DNA of 64,000 bases from a virus. Under the pieces are notes generated by a model. It ran no database searches. It was not told the origin of the DNA and was given only the letters and a program-made list of their open reading frames with translations. Location of the stretch: IMG/VR virus record IMGVR_UViG_3300008111_000003. The stretch is one strand, 5' to 3'. This document shows positions 5,042-13,014 of the stretch, one piece after another (position 1 is the stretch's first letter; each line of letters begins with the position of its first letter). The position numbers were made by a program, and so were the translations under genes.

Positions 5042-5569
5042 ATGCCAGCTAAAAAATATTTTATAACTAAAGAATATTTAGAAGAACATTATACCAAACA
5101 AAAAAAGAGCACAACCACCATAGCAAAAGAATTAGGACTTAAATCCACAAATACGCTTAAAAGATTATTAAAAAAATACGATATACCCAACAATAATAAT
5201 AGGGCTGGTAGGCCAGTAAAAACCACACAAAAATTTGGTGAAATACACAAATCATATATCTGTACATTAAGATTACGAGCAAAAAGATTAGATTATGAAT
5301 TCAATTTAAATGGAAAATTTTTATGGGAATTATTTCTAAAACAAAATAGAAAATGTGCTTTATCTGGCATAGAAATAGGATTTCCTCAAGCCTGGGGCGT
5401 TAAAAGTAAAACAGATATTACTGCGTCTCTAGATAGAATAGATAGTAATAAAGGATATACAAAAGATAATGTGCAATGGGTACACAAGCATATAAACACT
5501 ATGAAAATGCATATGACAGATATGGAGTTTATAAGTATCTGTAAGAAAGTAGCGGAATACAACAAGTGA
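5042..5569 (+). CDS. Free-standing HNH/His-Me homing endonuclease with N-terminal HTH-like region
   Basis: KQNRKCALSG..SLDRIDSNKGYTKDNVQWVHKHINTMK; AAGGAG RBS. Confidence 0.75.
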   Translation: MPAKKYFITKEYLEEHYTKQKKSTTTIAKELGLKSTNTLKRLLKKYDIPNNNNRAGRPVKTTQKFGEIHKSYICTLRLRAKRLDYEFNLNGKFLWELFLKQNRKCALSGIEIGFPQAWGVKSKTDITASLDRIDSNKGYTKDNVQWVHKHINTMKMHMTDMEFISICKKVAEYNK

Positions 5570-6609
5570 TTATAACCTATCTTCGAAGTTCAAGTTTTAA
5601 CACACACTGTTTCTGTGCTCAACAGTATTTTCTTGAATATGTACTAGGCATTAGATCCCCATCAGGAATTAAGGCCGATAAGGGCACTATAGTACATAAA
5701 GCTTTAGAGATTTTAGCCTATATTAAGCTAACATTACAAAATAAAGAAAATATTTATACTGATGATATTGTTGGTCCTATTAATGTTCATGACTATGATT
5801 TAGACCGAATTATTGATGCTGTTTATCAATACTATACGTCTCAGTTTAAACATCACTCATGGTCGGCCAAAGATTTAAAAGATTGTCGTCTATGGGTCAA
5901 CAAAGCGATCACAGATCACAACGGAACCTTCGATCCACGCAATAGAAACATACTTCAACCAGAGCAACATTTTGATATAGTTATAGATAAACCTTGGGCC
6001 TATTATTCGTACAAAACACAATCAGGAATTTTAGATGGTAATTTGGCGATAAAAGGAACTATTGATCTTATTACGGAAGTGGACGAAAATACCATAGAAA
6101 TTGTTGACTGGAAAACTGGCCGCAGACTAGACTGGGCAACTGGTCAAGAAAAAACTTTGGAAAAACTTCAAAATGATCCTCAGTTAAGAATATACCACTA
6201 TGCTGTGCAAAAATTGTATCCGAAAATGGATCATATTATTTTTACCATCAATTTTATTAATGATGGCGGAGCATTTAGTGTTTGTTATGATAAGAGCGAT
6301 TTGCCAAAAACAGAAAATATGATTAGACAAAAGTTTGAAACCATACGAGATACCACAAGACCATCACTTAACAAAAGTTGGAAATGCACCAAATTATGTC
6401 ATTTTGGAAAAACCACTTTTGAGAATAGTCATATTCTACCCATCATAGAATATAGAGATAATCAAATATGTGCCAAAGATACTTTCATGACCAAGTGTGA
6501 ACAAATCAAACACGATATTGATCTGAAAGGCATTAACAATGTGATTGACCAACACACTTTTCCTGGATATACTGTTGGTAAGTACAAAGCACCCGGAAGC
6601 GCAGAATGA
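5566..6609 (+). CDS. PD-(D/E)XK (RecB/Cas4-like) nuclease
   Basis: GTIVHKALE, PEQHF, KGTIDLI..EIVDWKTG, QLRIY, Cys cluster (C..CTKLCHF..C). Confidence 0.8.
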   Translation: MIITYLRSSSFNTHCFCAQQYFLEYVLGIRSPSGIKADKGTIVHKALEILAYIKLTLQNKENIYTDDIVGPINVHDYDLDRIIDAVYQYYTSQFKHHSWSAKDLKDCRLWVNKAITDHNGTFDPRNRNILQPEQHFDIVIDKPWAYYSYKTQSGILDGNLAIKGTIDLITEVDENTIEIVDWKTGRRLDWATGQEKTLEKLQNDPQLRIYHYAVQKLYPKMDHIIFTINFINDGGAFSVCYDKSDLPKTENMIRQKFETIRDTTRPSLNKSWKCTKLCHFGKTTFENSHILPIIEYRDNQICAKDTFMTKCEQIKHDIDLKGINNVIDQHTFPGYTVGKYKAPGSAE

Positions 6610-6696: not shown

Positions 6697-7416
6697 ATGA
6701 GAGGCAGAAAAGTAGACAATGGTCGTTTTGTAAAATGTTACGATAATAAATTAACAAAAAAATATCTAGAAAAAGAATATCCAAAACAAGGAGCCTATAA
6801 AATAGCTAAAAGTTTGGGGATTCACGTTAAAACCGTATATAATTATTTAGGATATTACAAAATACCAAGAACTAGACAAGAAAATAATAAAATTAAAAAA
6901 GGCCAAATTTTTGGATTGTTAACTTTAGTAGAACCTGTTGGAAAATTAAAAAACGGCACAATTACATGGAAGTGTATGTGTGACTGCGGAAGCGAGACAA
7001 TAGTACCATCCTCTAGGATAAAAATAGGCAAGGTTAAAAGTTGTGGCTGTTTGAACAAAATTAGTGGCTCAAAAAGATGGAATTGGAAGGGGTATTGTGG
7101 TATTAGTGGAAGCAGATTTTGTGAGATTAGATTAAGAGCCAAAAAGAAAAAATGGGATTTCAACCTAACTCCAAAATTCTTATGGGAACTATTTCAACAA
7201 CAAAACAAGAGATGTGCTATAACTAATGAAATTATAGATTTGAATATTGATGGATCATTAGATAGGATAGACAGTTCAAAAGGATATGTAAAAAATAACG
7301 TTTGGTGGGTTAAAAAAGATATAAATAAGATGAAACTAGACTTTCCATTAAATTTGTTTATCGAATTATGTGAGAAGGTTGTAGCCAATAAGGAGAATAT
7401 AAGAAATGGGCGTTGA
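6697..7416 (+). CDS. Free-standing HNH/His-Me homing endonuclease
   Basis: WKCMCDCG..VKSCGCL zinc-binding module; QQNKRCAIT..SLDRIDSSKGYVKNNVWWVKKDINKMK; related to 5042-5569. Confidence 0.78.
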   Translation: MRGRKVDNGRFVKCYDNKLTKKYLEKEYPKQGAYKIAKSLGIHVKTVYNYLGYYKIPRTRQENNKIKKGQIFGLLTLVEPVGKLKNGTITWKCMCDCGSETIVPSSRIKIGKVKSCGCLNKISGSKRWNWKGYCGISGSRFCEIRLRAKKKKWDFNLTPKFLWELFQQQNKRCAITNEIIDLNIDGSLDRIDSSKGYVKNNVWWVKKDINKMKLDFPLNLFIELCEKVVANKENIRNGR

Positions 7417-7450
7417 GCAACGATATGTGCCGCTACACGTCCATTCCTAA
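7406..7450 (+). CDS. dnaE: DnaE N-terminal 14-codon mini-ORF (MGVEQRYVPLHVHS-stop), first PHP motif
   Basis: AAGGAG RBS at 7390-7395; YVPLHVHS is the canonical DnaE start and continues as MFSLLDG 10 nt later in the +1 frame. Confidence 0.75.
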   Translation: MGVEQRYVPLHVHS

Positions 7451-7457
7451 GTGAACT

Positions 7458-8843
7458 ATGTTTTCACTTTTGGATGGACTATCCAAACCAGAGCAAATAG
7501 CAGAAAGATGCAAAGAGATCGGAGCATCTGCTTGTGCGTTAACAGATCATGGTAACATAGCAGGAACCATCAAGTTTTATACTGCTATGAAAAAAGCTGG
7601 ACTAAAGCCTATACTTGGATGTGAACTTTACATTTGTAGTCAAAACCCAAAAATCAAAGAAAAAGATAACAAAAAACTAAGTCATTTTCTGGTATTGGCT
7701 AAGAATTATTCAGGATGGAGAAATCTTATCAAGATAGTTTCATCATCCAATAATCCAGAATATTATTATCATAAGCCGAGATTGGATTTACCAACACTAA
7801 AAGATCTTCATTCAGGGGATTTGATCGGAATAACTGGTCATCTTGGATCAACACTAGCAGATCAAATACTAGACGGGGATGCTCTTAGAGATGATTGGCA
7901 AAATATAGGAGTACAACATATATCTTATCTTAAGACTATATTTGGTGATCATTTGTTTTTGGAAGCTCAATTAATAGATAAAGATAATCTGCCAATCCAA
8001 GAAATCCTCACAAACTGCATCAGAAAATTGGGACAATTAACCAATACTAAAGTTATATGTACTCCTGATGCTCATTATTGTCGCAAAGAGGATGCTGTTG
8101 ATCAGCGAGTATTATTGTGCAACAATCTTAAGATTACATTCTCTGATATTAGTCGTAAAATCATAAACGATCAAGATATTCCTATGGGGTGCTTTTTTAC
8201 ATCAGATAATTATCATATTCCATCTCAGGAGGAAATGAAGAACATACACACAGAAGAAGAAATCAATAATACAAATTTTGTGTGTGATTTAGTGGAAGAA
8301 TATAACATACTAAGTAAACCTAAATTACCATTATTTAAATGTCCACCAAATTTCTCTCAGGATGAATATTTAAGAGAACTGTGTAGAAACGGATGGAGAG
8401 ATAAAATAGCAAATGTTGTACCTAAAGAAGATCAACAACCATACTTGGATCGTATCAAATACGAACTAGAGGTTTTACAGGGTGCTGGGCTGAGTAGTTA
8501 TTTTTTAATAGTACAAGATATTGTGAACTATGTTAAAAGAGAAGGATGGCTTCCGGGACCGGGACGAGGTTGTTTTATACCAGAAACAAGAGTTAAAATG
8601 GCTTCTGGTGAATTGATGCCTATCTATAATATAGAAATAGGAGATCAAGTAATAGATGCTTTTGGAAATAAACAAAGAGTCTATGATATAATGAGATATG
8701 AAATAGATGAAGAAATACTGGAAATAGAATTAGAAAATGGTAAAATCATAAGATGTACAAAAGATCATAGATTTTTAACACTAAATAGGGGTTGGGTTGA
8801 AGCCCAGTATCTATCAGAAAATGATGATTTGGCCAAAATATAA
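7458..8843 (+). CDS. dnaE: DNA polymerase III alpha (DnaE) part 1: PHP domain plus start of polymerase, fused to N-terminal split-intein half
   Basis: FSLLDG, ALTDHGN, PILGCE, TPDAHY, YFLIVQDIV, GPGRG followed by intein block A CFIPET. Confidence 0.92.
   Translation: MFSLLDGLSKPEQIAERCKEIGASACALTDHGNIAGTIKFYTAMKKAGLKPILGCELYICSQNPKIKEKDNKKLSHFLVLAKNYSGWRNLIKIVSSSNNPEYYYHKPRLDLPTLKDLHSGDLIGITGHLGSTLADQILDGDALRDDWQNIGVQHISYLKTIFGDHLFLEAQLIDKDNLPIQEILTNCIRKLGQLTNTKVICTPDAHYCRKEDAVDQRVLLCNNLKITFSDISRKIINDQDIPMGCFFTSDNYHIPSQEEMKNIHTEEEINNTNFVCDLVEEYNILSKPKLPLFKCPPNFSQDEYLRELCRNGWRDKIANVVPKEDQQPYLDRIKYELEVLQGAGLSSYFLIVQDIVNYVKREGWLPGPGRGCFIPETRVKMASGELMPIYNIEIGDQVIDAFGNKQRVYDIMRYEIDEEILEIELENGKIIRCTKDHRFLTLNRGWVEAQYLSENDDLAKI
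8571..8840 (+). mobile_element. Split intein N-fragment (90 aa)
   Basis: Begins at Cys after GPGRG; block A CFIPETRV, block B IRCTKDHRFLT..GWVEA..L; ends at TAATAA. Confidence 0.9.
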
Positions 8844-8845
8844 TA

Positions 8846-8877
8846 AGAACCTCTTCCTGGACCACTTTTGGTGTATC
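8846..8877. promoter_or_regulatory. Inverted copy of the intein-less homing site abutting a GGTGTATC promoter motif (putative operator)
   Basis: Reverse complement of 8846-8866 is AGT GGT CCA GGA AGA GGT TCT (SGPGRGS); GGTGTATC at 8870-8877. Confidence 0.55.
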
Positions 8878-8900
8878 CTACTATGAAAGGACAATCTTGT

Positions 8901-9719
8901 ATGGAATATATAGCATTTAAATCTTTACAAGACAATAATTTTGAATACAGGGGATTAAGCAATAAACCTATTAAAGACATATGTATAAAATGCAATAAAA
9001 CTTTTGAATACGCTAAACTTAAGAAATTTATTAGGAGCAGAGTAAACATCCCAAAAATATATTGGTGTCAATGTCAGAAATGTTTTTTGCGATATAGAAC
9101 TATTGATAATTCAGACTGGATAGAAAAAAATAGGAAAGCACAACTTATAGCGCAAAATAAAGAAGAACAAAAGAAAAAGAACGCGGAGGCAGTATCAAAA
9201 TCTTGGACAAGAACAAGAAAAAATAAAGCTTCTGAATATCTTAAAGAAAGATGGGTTAATGATGAGGCTTTTAAAAATAAGGCTACTCTTAATTTAACCA
9301 ATAATAGAAGATATAATTTTACAAACGGAATTGCTACTGGGGGTCTTAGAGGATTATATAACGATATATACTATGATAGTGCGCTAGAACTATCTTTTAT
9401 ATTGTGGTGTGAATACAATAGTATGCCGATTAAAAGATATGATCAAGATTCTATTAAGTATGTAGATGAAAATACTATCGAAAGAGAATATTTTCCTGAT
9501 TTTATTATCAATAACACAACTATTGTCGAAATAAAAGGAAAAGGAATTTGGTATAATCGACACTTTGAACGCAATAAATTAAAAATGATAGCAGCAAAGA
9601 CCAAATTTAATGCAAAGTATTGCATATATTACGACTGGGATGAACAAACAAAATTATTTTATCGAAAGGCTAGAAAATTACATCATGAAAATAAAAAGAA
9701 AAACGTCGCTATCATATAA
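8901..9719 (+). CDS. Free-standing endonuclease (TnsA-like PD-(D/E)XK C-domain) between split-intein halves
   Basis: YYDSALEL..IKY..YFPDFII..IVEIKG; N-terminal CxxC pairs and basic helical region; AAGGA RBS favours ATG 8901 over 8868. Confidence 0.75.
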   Translation: MEYIAFKSLQDNNFEYRGLSNKPIKDICIKCNKTFEYAKLKKFIRSRVNIPKIYWCQCQKCFLRYRTIDNSDWIEKNRKAQLIAQNKEEQKKKNAEAVSKSWTRTRKNKASEYLKERWVNDEAFKNKATLNLTNNRRYNFTNGIATGGLRGLYNDIYYDSALELSFILWCEYNSMPIKRYDQDSIKYVDENTIEREYFPDFIINNTTIVEIKGKGIWYNRHFERNKLKMIAAKTKFNAKYCIYYDWDEQTKLFYRKARKLHHENKKKNVAII

Positions 9720-9789
9720 GGGTACTGTGTGCGATTTGTCTGTAACCAATACAGCATCTTATAATGTTGAAGGGATTGGAGTACACAAT
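9685..9789 (+). mobile_element. Split intein C-fragment (35 aa)
   Basis: Basic N-terminus, block F VCDLSV, block G YNVEGIGVHN followed by Ser+1. Confidence 0.9.
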
Positions 9790-10518
9790 AGTGCGGCGGG
9801 GTGTTTGGTATCCTATCTCATCGGCATAACTAATATTGATCCTATAAAATATAGTCTGCTTTTTGAAAGATTCTATAATGAGGGTCGTAACACAGCAGAC
9901 AATATTTCCATGCCAGATATTGATGTAGATATACCTATCGAAAAGCGAGAAATGGTTATTCAATATATCAAAGACAAATATGGTTCGGACAAAGTTTCTC
10001 AAATGGTTACTTTCAATACGATCAAGGGTAGGGGCGCACTAAAAGACGTATTAAGAGTATATGGTAATATTACATTTGAAGAAATGAATAAGATAACCAA
10101 AAATATCCCCGATGAGTCTAAGATTGCCGATGATCTTCAAGAGATGAAAGAAGAAACTGGCGAAGCATCCATCGTTCGATGGGCTTTGGAAAACGATAAT
10201 GATAAGCTTAAAGAATGGTGCTTTATTGATGAAAAAGGACAACTACAAGGCCTCTTGTCAAAAAGGTTTGAACAGGCTATTAGACTAGAGGGCACCAAGT
10301 CAAATCAGTCCAAACATGCTGCTGGTATTGCTATCAGTAGTGAACCATTAAATGAATTATGTCCTATGGTTTATGATAGTAAGAATGATCAGTTAATAGC
10401 AGGAATGGAGATGCAAGACTTGGAAAGCATAGGAATTATTAAGTTTGATATTCTTGGTGTTGCTCTTCTTGATAAAGTGATGACAATCAGAGACCTTTTA
10501 AATGAAGGAGTTCAATAA
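9685..10518 (+). CDS. dnaE: DnaE part 2: C-terminal split-intein half fused to polymerase catalytic core
   Basis: MKIKRK..VHN then SAAGCLVSYLIGIT..DPI..LLFERF..MPDIDVD..KHAAG..KFDILG; start set at Met26 of the tracked ORF. Confidence 0.9.
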   Translation: MKIKRKTSLSYKGTVCDLSVTNTASYNVEGIGVHNSAAGCLVSYLIGITNIDPIKYSLLFERFYNEGRNTADNISMPDIDVDIPIEKREMVIQYIKDKYGSDKVSQMVTFNTIKGRGALKDVLRVYGNITFEEMNKITKNIPDESKIADDLQEMKEETGEASIVRWALENDNDKLKEWCFIDEKGQLQGLLSKRFEQAIRLEGTKSNQSKHAAGIAISSEPLNELCPMVYDSKNDQLIAGMEMQDLESIGIIKFDILGVALLDKVMTIRDLLNEGVQ

Positions 10519-10703
10519 TGATGGTTAAGTTTAAAGATGTGGCTGAAAATACATTATTTAGCAAAGATGGTGTGGAATTCAAAAAAATACAACTAGTAAA
10601 AATTAGTTGTTGTAAAACAATAAATGCTATACAAGTATTAGATCCTAGAAATAGAGTGCTTTTTAATCAAGAAGATGAAGTAGAAGTGAATGATCAACTA
10701 TAA
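10518..10703 (+). CDS. Small hypothetical protein
   Basis: AAGGAG RBS; overlaps flanking genes. Confidence 0.55.
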   Translation: MMVKFKDVAENTLFSKDGVEFKKIQLVKISCCKTINAIQVLDPRNRVLFNQEDEVEVNDQL

Positions 10704-11385
10704 TAAGATTTGTGTTTTTGATTTTGAGACAGACGGATCGGATCCATCAGAATGCAGTCCTGTACAGATTGCTGCTATTATGATAGATCCATTAAATTTG
10801 GACATTATACCCGGCTCAGAGTTCAATATAAACTTTAGGCCAGAAGTTTTGGAAAACAACGAAAACTACAAATACGAAACAGATATATTAGATTTTCATT
10901 CAAAGGTTAAAGGGTGTTCTCAAGACGAGGTTTTAGCCTCGTGGTATAAATATCCTAAACAGGATCATTCTTGGAAATTATTCACAGCCTATTTGGATAA
11001 ATACCATTCACGAGCAACTAAAAAAAGTCAATTTTCTGCACCTATTGCTGCTGGTTATAATATACATAGATTTGATCTACATATCATAGACAGATTAAGC
11101 AAAAAGTATGGTAATTTGAACAAAGAAAAAAGAACAGATTTATTTTATCCTAGAGACACTATAGATGCTATGCAATTAATGTTTTATTGGTTTGAGCATA
11201 GTAGTGATCTTAAAAGTTATTCGTTAGATACTGTGAGAGATTATCTGGGAATTAGCAAAGATGGTGCTCACGATGCTCTAAAAGATGTTCAGGATACAGC
11301 AGCAATAATAATTAGGTTTTTAAAGTTACATCGTAATTTGGGACAAAAGGTAAAGTTTAAGAATTCTTTTGCAAATCAGGCATGA
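10690..11385 (+). CDS. dnaQ: DEDDh 3'-5' exonuclease (DnaQ/epsilon-like)
   Basis: ExoI VFDFETDG, ExoII GYNIHRFD, ExoIII AHDALKDV. Confidence 0.88.
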   Translation: MINYNKICVFDFETDGSDPSECSPVQIAAIMIDPLNLDIIPGSEFNINFRPEVLENNENYKYETDILDFHSKVKGCSQDEVLASWYKYPKQDHSWKLFTAYLDKYHSRATKKSQFSAPIAAGYNIHRFDLHIIDRLSKKYGNLNKEKRTDLFYPRDTIDAMQLMFYWFEHSSDLKSYSLDTVRDYLGISKDGAHDALKDVQDTAAIIIRFLKLHRNLGQKVKFKNSFANQA

Positions 11386-12989
11386 CTAAAAAATATCAAT
11401 ATCCTTGTGGATGTTCTTTTGAGTTAAATGATAACAATGGATTAGTTTTTGATCCAGATATTAACTCTATAAATTTGGACTGTTCCAGAACATGGGGTCT
11501 AATTTCGGATGGTAATACTAAGGGTTGTTTTCAATTAGAATCTCGTCTAGGACGATCCATAGCCAAAAAACTTAAGCCAGAAAATATAGAGCAGCTTTCT
11601 GCACTAATTGCTGTGTTAAGACCCGGCTCATTAGAGGCTATTAGAGATGGTAAAAGTGTAACCAATCATTATATCGATAAAAAGAATGGTCAAGAAACAC
11701 TAGATAACTTTCATCCCGTTCTTGAGCCAATCCTAAATTCAACATACGGAGAGATGATATATCAAGAACAAGCAATGGAAATTGCTAAGATAGTTGCTGG
11801 TTTTAATTTGCGAGAAGCAGATATGTTAAGAAAAGCTATTGGTAAGAAAAAACCAGAAGAAATGGCAAAGGTTAAGTCAAAGTTTTTAGAAGGATCATCA
11901 AAACTGAATATCTTAAGCACAAATGAGGCAGAACAGGTGTTTGGTTGGATTGAAAAAAGTCAAAGATATTCTTTCAATAAGTCCCATTCTGTTAGTTATG
12001 CTATTAATGCGTACTTATCAGCATATGCCAAAGCACATTTTCCAAAAATATTTTTTGCATCATATCTCAGATTTGCCAAAGATAAAAAAGATCCTCAAGC
12101 AGAGATAAAAGAATTGGTACAAAATGCTAATGAAATGGATATTACTGTTCATACTCCTGATATTAGAAATCTTAATGAGTTCTTTATATTGAAGAACGAT
12201 AAGATATATTTTGGTTTAACAGATATTAAGGGTGTGGGCAAATCGGTATTTGATAAGCTTAGAGGAATATCTTTGAATGTTAAATTTGATTCATCTAATT
12301 GGCTTCAGTTTTTATTCTTAGTTTTGAATAGAATTAATTCTACAGCAGCCAAAGCTTTGATCCAAAGCGGGGCGCTTAGTTTTATACCAATAACCAGAAG
12401 TAAGATGTTGTATGAATATAATCTTGTTAGCACTTTAACAGCCAAAGAGATTGAGCATATTTGTAATAACTTGACCAAATTCACCACACTAAAGGAATGT
12501 TTGGGATTTGTGATGGGTTTACCTAGAGTTAATAAGAATAGACAAAATTCTATCAGAGATTCTTTGTATGCTTTAGATTTTCCACCACATTCATTGGATG
12601 ATAGTCCGGAGTGGATAGCAGACTGCGAAGATGCCTTACTTGGATGCTCTATTACTTGTTCCAAGCTGGATATGTATGATATTAGTATGACCAATATAAC
12701 ATGTAGAGAATTAAAGAATACGTCTATGAAAGATAATCTTATTCTTGGCGGAGAAATAGATAATATCAATATTGTAAAGACCAAAAGTGGTAAAAATCCC
12801 GGTCAAGAAATGGCTTTTGTTACAATGACAGATCAAACTGGTTGTGTTGACTCTATAGTATTTTTTCCTGAACAATACAAAACTTTCAAGAATTTACTAT
12901 TTTTGGGCAATATTGTTATTGTGAAAGGATCTAAGTCCAAGAACGGAGATGGTATCATAGTAGAAAAGGGTTATATAGCAAAAACTTGA
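11382..12989 (+). CDS. dnaE: DnaE part 3: fingers, HhH and OB-fold C-terminal portion
   Basis: GCFQLES, LRPG, IYQEQAM, ADMLRKAIGKKK, YSFNKSHSVSYA, FGLTDIKGVG, MAFVTMTD. Confidence 0.92.
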   Translation: MTKKYQYPCGCSFELNDNNGLVFDPDINSINLDCSRTWGLISDGNTKGCFQLESRLGRSIAKKLKPENIEQLSALIAVLRPGSLEAIRDGKSVTNHYIDKKNGQETLDNFHPVLEPILNSTYGEMIYQEQAMEIAKIVAGFNLREADMLRKAIGKKKPEEMAKVKSKFLEGSSKLNILSTNEAEQVFGWIEKSQRYSFNKSHSVSYAINAYLSAYAKAHFPKIFFASYLRFAKDKKDPQAEIKELVQNANEMDITVHTPDIRNLNEFFILKNDKIYFGLTDIKGVGKSVFDKLRGISLNVKFDSSNWLQFLFLVLNRINSTAAKALIQSGALSFIPITRSKMLYEYNLVSTLTAKEIEHICNNLTKFTTLKECLGFVMGLPRVNKNRQNSIRDSLYALDFPPHSLDDSPEWIADCEDALLGCSITCSKLDMYDISMTNITCRELKNTSMKDNLILGGEIDNINIVKTKSGKNPGQEMAFVTMTDQTGCVDSIVFFPEQYKTFKNLLFLGNIVIVKGSKSKNGDGIIVEKGYIAKT

Positions 12990-13014
12990 CCTGTCGCCGT
13001 GGTCAATATACTAT
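12986..13014 (+). promoter_or_regulatory. Sigma70-like promoter for ssb with overlapping palindrome
   Basis: TTGACC-N17-TACTAT; TTGACC-N9-GGTCAA inverted repeat at 12986-13006. Confidence 0.5.

Follow-up and report, generated by a model that had tools for sequence, protein, structure and literature searches.

The window analysed here is the complete 64,000-nucleotide stretch of the IMG/VR virus record IMGVR_UViG_3300008111_000003, which represents an uncultured tailed phage from freshwater with 33% G+C, densely packed genes, and no tRNA genes. The dnaE gene in its replication module, which encodes the alpha subunit of DNA polymerase III (Pol III), is distributed over several open reading frames (ORFs). 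Two of these carry the N-terminal half (IntN) and the C-terminal half (IntC) of an intein, and a nuclease gene is located between the halves. The following features were assigned, the adjoining polymerase parts being termed N-extein and C-extein:

7458–8570, plus strand: N-extein, the PHP domain of DnaE together with the beginning of its palm (residues 1–371, ending ...WLPGPGRG).
8571–8840, plus strand: IntN (N-intein), 90 amino acids, with Cys1, block B T-K-D-H, a net charge of −7, and an isoelectric point (pI) of 4.62.
8841–8846, plus strand: double stop TAATAA terminating the N-fragment, read directly from the sequence.
8846–8863, minus strand: inverted copy of the uninterrupted target site, whose reverse complement GGTCCAGGAAGAGGTTCT encodes G-P-G-R-G-S.
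8901–9719, plus strand: free-standing nuclease gene, 272 amino acids, with a zinc ribbon, a helical region, and a C-terminal PD-(D/E)xK domain.
9685–9789, plus strand: IntC (C-intein), 35 amino acids, pI 9.43, with block F Asp17 and a V-H-N end.
9790–10518, plus strand: C-extein, the rest of the DnaE palm, which opens with SAAGCLVSY and carries the PDIDVD catalytic aspartates.

The ORF 7458–8843 runs through ...WLPGPGRG into Cys372 (TGT, 8571–8573), the first residue of IntN, and the intein half ends with ...DDLAKI (8838–8840). IntC, read from the ATG at 9685, has the sequence MKIKRKTSLSYKGTVCDLSVTNTASYNVEGIGVHN and ends with GVHN at position 9789; its start overlaps the final 35 nt of the nuclease gene. 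The nuclease frame differs from the frames of both ORFs that bear the intein halves (7458–8843 and 9685–10518). Directly after IntC, the polymerase continues with SAAGCLVSYLIGITNIDP. The N-extein matched the Pfam PHP domain (3e-31) and, at residues 303–371, the profile positions 1–65 of DNA_pol3_alpha, which resumes in the C-extein with positions 66–260 (1.8e-54). The Pfam model is thus broken between positions 65 and 66, exactly at the intein junction. The C-extein also matched residues 424–445 of the Taq Pol III alpha subunit. The active-site loop is divided by the insertion, with GPGRG on the N-extein and SAAG as well as the PDIDVD aspartates on the C-extein. An earlier note, prepared from the letters of the window, had listed GPGRG, an acidic IntN of 90 amino acids, TAATAA, a nuclease ORF, a basic IntC of 35 amino acids, VHN, and SAAG, all of which were recovered in place. 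Its proposal of a split intein at GRG|S with a free-standing nuclease in another frame is borne out by the ORFs and by the split polymerase model.

Four intein/Hint models matched residues 370–459. The Pfam model Intein_splicing (PF14890) reached 36.3 bits on IntN at a cut-off of 35.8, and the three Hint models stayed under their cut-offs. Because these four matches coincide with the division of DNA_pol3_alpha into positions 1–65 and 66–260 at the junction, the arrangement is not a product of chance. Matches of IntN in the PDB were the Ssp and Npu DnaE, NrdJ-1, and gp41-1 inteins, and the Ssp DnaE structures aligned over block B. Within the IntN alignment, C1, T63, and H66 were invariant (five of five sequences), block B being T63-K-D-H66. 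Block G was identified as ...GVHN|SAAG at 9781–9801.

IMG/VR was scanned with the N-fragment, which yielded 80 loci (numbered with the prefix L); further occupied sites were obtained from scans with a nuclease profile and with the IntN alignment, and the genomic context of the nuclease clusters was sampled through IMG/VR loci. More than 25 distinct cassettes, in which IntN is 41–67% identical to that of the window, retain Cys1, T-x-x-H, the block F Asp, the terminal H-N, and Ser+1. The junction VHN|S is common to all of them. The halves carry complementary charges in every pair. In the window, IntN contains 18 acidic (D+E) versus 11 basic (K+R) residues and IntC five basic versus two acidic ones (net charge +3), in line with the acidic and basic character that the earlier note had ascribed to them (pI 4.62 versus 9.43). 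Over all pairs, the net charge of IntN ranges from −3 to −16. The C-fragments open with the Lys-rich M-K-[LI]-K, a start that is fixed in L109, L119, and L122 by stop codons lying in frame a short distance ahead of it. The N-fragment stops 89–93 amino acids past Cys1 in homologous cassettes and up to 107 amino acids past it in more distant ones. Judged by these sequence features, the element is a class 1 split intein at GRG|S in a phage dnaE gene. From the conservation alone, we infer that splicing is needed and takes place.

The nuclease gene was delimited by comparison, since its mechanical ORF opens with TTG at 8868, whereas the alignment of 35 homologues and an AAGGA located 9 nt ahead favour the ATG at 8901. 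Homology searches yielded 68 clusters (38–100% identity), none with an informative name, and 413 representatives at E ≤ 1e-3. An alignment of 36 sequences displayed three parts: a CxxC...CxxC zinc ribbon, a conserved helical region (AQLIAQNKPEQKKKNA..VSKSW..RK.KAS..LK.RW.ND), and a C-terminal domain with the invariant residues S160, E163, P199, D200, E210, and K212 (SALE163, YFPD200F, VE210IK212). The succession E...PD...ExK corresponds to the classical PD-(D/E)xK signature. In a Foldseek search with the AlphaFold (AF2) model (predicted local distance difference test score, pLDDT, 87), TnsA ranked first (9BW1_M, probability 0.99; 1T0F, 0.98; 1F1Z, 0.90), all E-values being >0.02. The VIA all-against-representatives search gave TnsA a Z of 7.1 over 125 residues, the best coverage, and VRR-NUC, I-Bth0305I, and Vsr a Z of 5.3–5.4. 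The predicted relationship to TnsA is supported by rank, probability, coverage, and motif rather than by significance. Two cassette homologues pass the cut-off of the Tn7_TnsA-like_N family PF08722 (26.5 bits), namely L110 with 31.8 and L106 with 27.9 bits. Several nuclease clusters bear a precomputed PF08722 assignment; some homologues match DUF7487 or T7 endonuclease I below threshold. The motif, the fold ranking, and the two passing homologues agree with the view, held in the earlier note, of a TnsA-like rather than a LAGLIDADG enzyme.

Two other nuclease types were considered and rejected. A LAGLIDADG nuclease had no Pfam or PHROG match, and the predicted fold is that of an alpha/beta PD-(D/E)xK enzyme. 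The EDxHD (Vsr-like) family is characterized by a His and a second Asp, neither of which is conserved in the catalytic domain, where an invariant ExK is found instead; a profile search of the PDB (E ≤ 10) gave no match to I-Bth0305I or Vsr, and the VIA Z of 5.3 to 3R3P and 1CW0 (I-Bth0305I/Vsr) lies at the level of a shared fold only.

The distribution of the cassette is patchy. In about 78 of the 80 loci, the N-extein continues in frame and without a gap into the C-extein (GPGRGSAAG), which corresponds to an empty site; these relatives have a contiguous dnaE at this point, to which the N-extein of the window is 57–78% identical. Occupied sites are in the minority among close relatives; about 30 contigs in all, including distant ones, have the split cassette at the equivalent position. 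One of them, L001, holds IntN, nuclease, and IntC, and in all of them the intein follows the G-x-G-R-G of a DnaE. In distant hosts (L092, L093, L095, L101, L106, and L108–L111), the intein halves are 52–67% identical and the exteins 23–32%, whereas in close relatives exteins with 72–86% identity flank cassettes with 57–67%. Because of the many empty sites and this decoupling of extein and cassette divergence, the pattern points to horizontal movement of the cassette and not to vertical descent alone.

The interior of the cassette varies as well. In L117 (4305–5051) and L122 (4269–5201), a GIY-YIG/NUMOD3 nuclease is located between homologous intein halves. In L119 (4001–5122), IntN is joined in frame to a TnsA-like nuclease in a single ORF of 374 amino acids. 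L093 (4271–4330), L098 (4271–4370), and L105 (4268–4330) carry a split intein at the same site from which the nuclease was removed. They keep the first bases past the IntN stop and the last nuclease codons (...YKKARKLHHE), which contain the IntC start, and are independent internal deletions.

Taken together, we estimate a probability of roughly 85% that the locus is a fractured gene, in which a mobile split intein and a homing nuclease form a cassette inserted into the GPGRG|SAAG nucleotide-binding loop of a phage DnaE. Three proteins would be produced: DnaE(1–371)-IntN with 461 amino acids, the nuclease with 272, and IntC followed by the DnaE palm with 277. The acidic IntN and the basic IntC would associate and fold as one Hint domain. 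Class 1 trans-splicing would then proceed from a thioester at Cys1 via the attack of Ser+1 and the cyclisation of the terminal Asn of IntC to an acyl shift, by which Gly371 would be joined to Ser in an uninterrupted PHP-palm chain of 613 amino acids. The spliced chain would team up with a separate DEDDh exonuclease and with the half comprising fingers, HhH, and OB, a two-gene layout that is native to the lineage. When relatives co-infect, the TnsA-like nuclease would cleave their intein-free dnaE in or close to the insertion site, and the complete IntN-nuclease-IntC cassette would be copied into the broken allele by recombinational repair. The resident allele would be immune because the cassette disrupts the site. 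Homing is indirectly supported by the patchy distribution and by the decoupled divergence of cassette and exteins.

Several observations weigh against this interpretation. The IntC of the window is devoid of the block F His, which is replaced by Ala (9745–9756, IntC residues 21–24), the motif reading N-T-A-S-Y versus N-S-H-T-Y in most relatives. This His usually assists Asn cyclisation. It is also replaced in L094, L098, and L099 (N-[ST]-A-S-Y) and absent from the contiguous intein of phage G; since these share the feature, the loss is probably tolerated, although splicing may be slow and its kinetics may differ. No hairpin was found around the IntN stop in the window (z = +1.9), and regulation may differ in this respect. 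The structural Z of 5–7 allows the claim of a shared fold only. The nuclease of the window stayed under every Pfam gathering score, including that of PF08722, and PDB searches with the nuclease sequence by itself or with the corresponding profile (E ≤ 10) returned chance matches only. Identical contigs were present in two metatranscriptome libraries and covered 8813–9379 (intergenic element and 5' half of the nuclease gene), 7630–8192, and 10299–11153; such contigs could stem from contaminating DNA, and the evidence for transcription is weak.

The nuclease might no longer be, or might never have been, a homing enzyme. The intein would then splice in a vertically inherited cassette, or the nuclease would serve in the exclusion of competing phages or the degradation of host DNA. 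Such a role would fit the loss of the nuclease from three lineages that keep the split intein, and folds of the TnsA, T7 endonuclease I, and Hjc type are put to a variety of uses. A tblastn search of the deposited phage genomes with the nuclease gave no match, and the protein has no characterised relative. The catalytic motif and the full length are, however, conserved over 36 homologues, and all full-length homologues with retrieved DNA lie between intein halves at the GPGRG|S site. Empty sites in many close relatives, next to the uneven occurrence and the uncoupled divergence described above, are the expected signature of homing, and we regard a non-homing nuclease as improbable. Among the neighbouring genes, which are dnaE fragments and replication genes only, no TnsB or TnsC partner was found, and the enzyme is predicted to act like a homing nuclease and not like a transposase subunit. 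A TnsA-like nuclease within inteins was sought in the literature without relevant results.

The intein halves might, alternatively, serve as a docking clasp that holds the polymerase pieces together non-covalently and never splices. The split, intein-less NrdA of Aeh1 is reportedly a fractured phage enzyme of this kind, assembled non-covalently. The lineage already runs DnaE as two non-covalent halves, and the missing block F His of the window would also be in keeping with a mere clasp. Docking alone would not keep residues that are required only for the chemistry (Cys1, TxxH, block F Asp, His-Asn, and Ser+1), yet these are invariant in cassettes that have otherwise diverged widely. A Hint domain of 125 residues left in the GPGRG|SAAG phosphate-binding loop would, in addition, probably disturb the active site. 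We therefore consider a clasp without splicing very unlikely and retain trans-splicing as the preferred reading.

The exact 1.5 kb was found in full in 17 DNA runs from lake and freshwater metagenomes (some labelled fungus metagenome) of at least 14 studies between 2017 and 2024, and some of these runs may stem from the source sample itself. In one of the 17, a contig of 12.4 kb spans 7949–11400 with zero differences. Read-level support consists of contigs only, and the raw DNA reads of run X21 miss the locus. The same stops occur in more than 25 distinct metagenomic loci. Owing to the 17 identical runs, the exact contig, and these loci, an assembly artefact can be dismissed. That the stops are sequencing or assembly errors, or are read through to give one contiguous intein-nuclease polypeptide, is effectively refuted by these data together with the double stop TAATAA and the different frames of nuclease and IntC with their 35-nt overlap, even though the in-frame fusion of 374 amino acids in L119 shows that IntN-nuclease fusions occur.

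A further conserved element lies between the IntN stop and the start of the nuclease gene. Directly past the stop, the sequence AGAACCTCTTCCTGGACC was identified, the reverse complement of which reads GPGRGS. Compared with 42 distinct 18-mers from empty sites, this element (8846–8863) matched at 16 of 18 positions, and across 128,000 window positions (both strands) only the true junction equals it. At the same intergenic spot, 16 of 18 positions are matched in L094 and 15 of 18 in L100, L102, L107, and the distant L106, in which the surrounding sequence is different. In L095, L100, L107, and L116, the core (ACCTCGA) pairs with the last IntN codons in a hairpin with the stop codon in its loop. 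The explanation that the element represents no more than a hairpin's 3' arm was rejected; it accounts for the CGAGGTT core in these four loci, but not for 16 of 18 positions in the window and in L094 or 15 of 18 in L106. The element might be a scar of aberrant repair during homing, or it might mediate long-range RNA pairing with the N-junction. By analogy to I-TevI, it might also be an operator-like site that the nuclease binds and leaves uncleaved. Work by Edgell et al. 2004 reportedly showed that I-TevI represses its own expression at its late promoter. Scans for sigma-70 promoters and terminators gave results at the level of shuffled sequence and were uninformative.

A more far-reaching reading, which we put forward tentatively and consider doubtful as a whole, would combine three propositions. 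The nuclease would found an uncharacterised family of free-standing homing endonucleases, in which a TnsA-like PD-(D/E)xK domain is combined with a zinc ribbon and a helical region for DNA binding and of which some members carry Pfam DUF7487; 8846–8863 would be an uncleaved operator by which the expression of the nuclease is repressed or timed; and the more than 25 pairs would represent a panel of Ser+1 inteins with C-parts of 35 amino acids that are possibly orthogonal to Npu DnaE and gp41-1.

Outside the cassette, the remaining parts of the polymerase module are encoded as follows:

10690–11385, plus strand: DEDDh exonuclease gene of the RNase_T family (Pfam RNase_T 4.3e-10), outside the cassette and between the native dnaE halves.
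11382–12989, plus strand: C-half of DnaE (fingers, HhH, OB) as a separate gene (Pfam DNA_pol3_finger 2.2e-44, HHH_6, OB).

The C-half of DnaE is a separate gene in all relatives, and the exonuclease gene occupies an equal position in about 78 of them. This second, intein-free break of dnaE lies after the palm (…KFDILGVALLDK…) within 10518–12989, where an ORF of 61 amino acids and then the exonuclease gene precede the half with fingers, HhH, and OB; the order is kept in the same relatives. Intein motifs are absent there, and the division between palm and fingers is a trait of the lineage. At the other end of the gene, in 7400–7470, the dnaE frame apparently begins upstream of the ATG at 7458. 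Another frame reads ...RYVPLHVHS followed by TAA, and MFSLLDG starts about 10 nt further on; in the relatives, this part is contiguous (MNYIPLHCHSMFSLLDG).

Upstream of the dnaE pieces, the replication module comprises, in this order, an HNH gene (5042–5569), a gene for a PD-(D/E)XK exonuclease-like protein (5566–6609), and a second HNH gene (6697–7416). The two HNH genes, which flank the exonuclease-like gene, are free-standing and endonuclease VII-like (phrog_3322). Selfish nuclease genes crowd the replication module. A blastn search with 7400–13000 against deposited phages gave no match, and a close cultured relative is absent from that collection.

Additional insertions were observed in the dnaE modules of relatives. 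The C-half of DnaE carries further inteins in L082 (3661–6021) and L081 (8174–9769), at two sites that are both empty in the window. The first site, LRPG|C...VHN|C/S, is occupied by a contiguous intein that contains an HNH-type insert; at the second, in L081, an N-intein stops after FNK|C, where the DnaE split intein of cyanobacteria is inserted. Insertions of about 0.7–1 kb were found elsewhere in the module in L017, L018, and L033 (approximately 10694–11728) and in L059 and L060 (approximately 10730–11762 and 8587–9619), and insertions of similar length are located between the palm and the small ORF in L011 and L012. They could represent additional inteins or mobile genes for nucleases.

Among known systems, the cyanobacterial DnaE split intein (Ssp, Npu) also belongs to class 1, is split in nature, and resides in the alpha subunit of Pol III. 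The resemblance is recognisable in block B (E 1e-5 to 2e-4) but spans only about 30 residues, and the insertion site differs. The cyanobacterial intein is inserted before the FNKSH motif of the fingers, its halves are encoded at separate loci without a nuclease, and its +1 residue is Cys and not Ser. The FNKSH motif is intact in the window (within 11382–12989). Contiguous inteins occupy the same site as the split intein in gp329 of Bacillus phage G (about 245 amino acids, GPGRG|C...AVHN|SAAG) and in gp116 of Lactococcus phage 949 (about 375 amino acids, TGRG|C ... VHN|S). Both intein halves of the window align to the ends of the gp329 intein (E 2e-18 and 3e-24; IntC at residues 688–712). In both phages, the two intein ends are homologous to the halves of the window, but the inteins are single, cis-splicing ORFs with no separate nuclease gene inside.

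The C-terminal domain of the nuclease resembles the N-terminal nuclease domain of TnsA (PF08722; PDB 1F1Z, 1T0F) in its predicted fold and in the E...PD...(E/Q)xK layout. The identity is 11–16%, the zinc ribbon and the helical region are unrelated to TnsA, and, unlike TnsA, the nuclease has no transposon context. I-Bth0305I (PMC3239194) is likewise a phage homing nuclease, as is predicted for the enzyme of the window, and combines a restriction-endonuclease fold (Z 5.3) with the same order of parts, a helical DNA-binding portion at the N-terminus and the catalytic domain at the C-terminus. The EDxHD motif with its catalytic His and second Asp defines the I-Bth0305I/Vsr-like homing endonucleases (PMC3239194), which also occur in fractured genes; the nuclease of the window has ExK in place of the defining His and second Asp.

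The closest counterparts are the fractured genes that Dassa et al. 2009 (PMC2677866) described in ocean and lake metagenomes, namely gp41-1 to gp41-9, NrdA, NrdJ-1, IMPDH-1, and three DnaE loci. DnaE is one of eight host types in that study, the nucleases are GIY-YIG or Vsr-like (EDxHD) enzymes, and hairpins upstream of such nuclease genes are described. Its text states no insertion points for DnaE, and GPGRG|S may or may not be among its three sites. As in those genes, the locus in the window consists of host gene, N-intein, stop, free-standing endonuclease gene, C-intein, and host gene: the halves are on two ORFs at one locus, a nuclease gene with its own start and stop lies between them, and intein-free alleles exist. 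A phage replication enzyme serves as host, the intein is split at the canonical endonuclease-insertion point into an acidic IntN of about 90 and a basic IntC of about 35 amino acids, a hairpin upstream of the nuclease gene is present in some relatives, and nuclease-less variants occur. The contiguous, swapped, deleted, and fused variants match steps of the gene-breaking model proposed by Dassa et al. (PMC2677866). The nuclease, a classical PD-(D/E)xK enzyme that is TnsA-like and bears a zinc ribbon, is unlike those described there.

Hence the basic arrangement has been known since 2009, and the surprise for the specialist is modest. The earlier note was right in calling the fractured-gene layout known (PMC2677866), but it slightly understated the prior art with respect to the three fractured DnaE loci reported there and to the contiguous inteins at the same site in phages G and 949. 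New in comparison are the documentation of a large GPGRG|S family, the TnsA-like nuclease family in such a role, and the conserved inverted copy of the target site. A single set of relatives displays all stages of the proposed life cycle, namely empty, contiguous, split with nuclease, nuclease swapped, and nuclease deleted. The more than 25 diverged, naturally split pairs with a C-part of 35 amino acids and a Ser+1 junction are raw material for protein-ligation tools. The TnsA-like enzymes would be the third nuclease family in fractured loci, next to the GIY-YIG and Vsr-like ones, and the conserved target-site copy could reveal how selfish nucleases are restrained.

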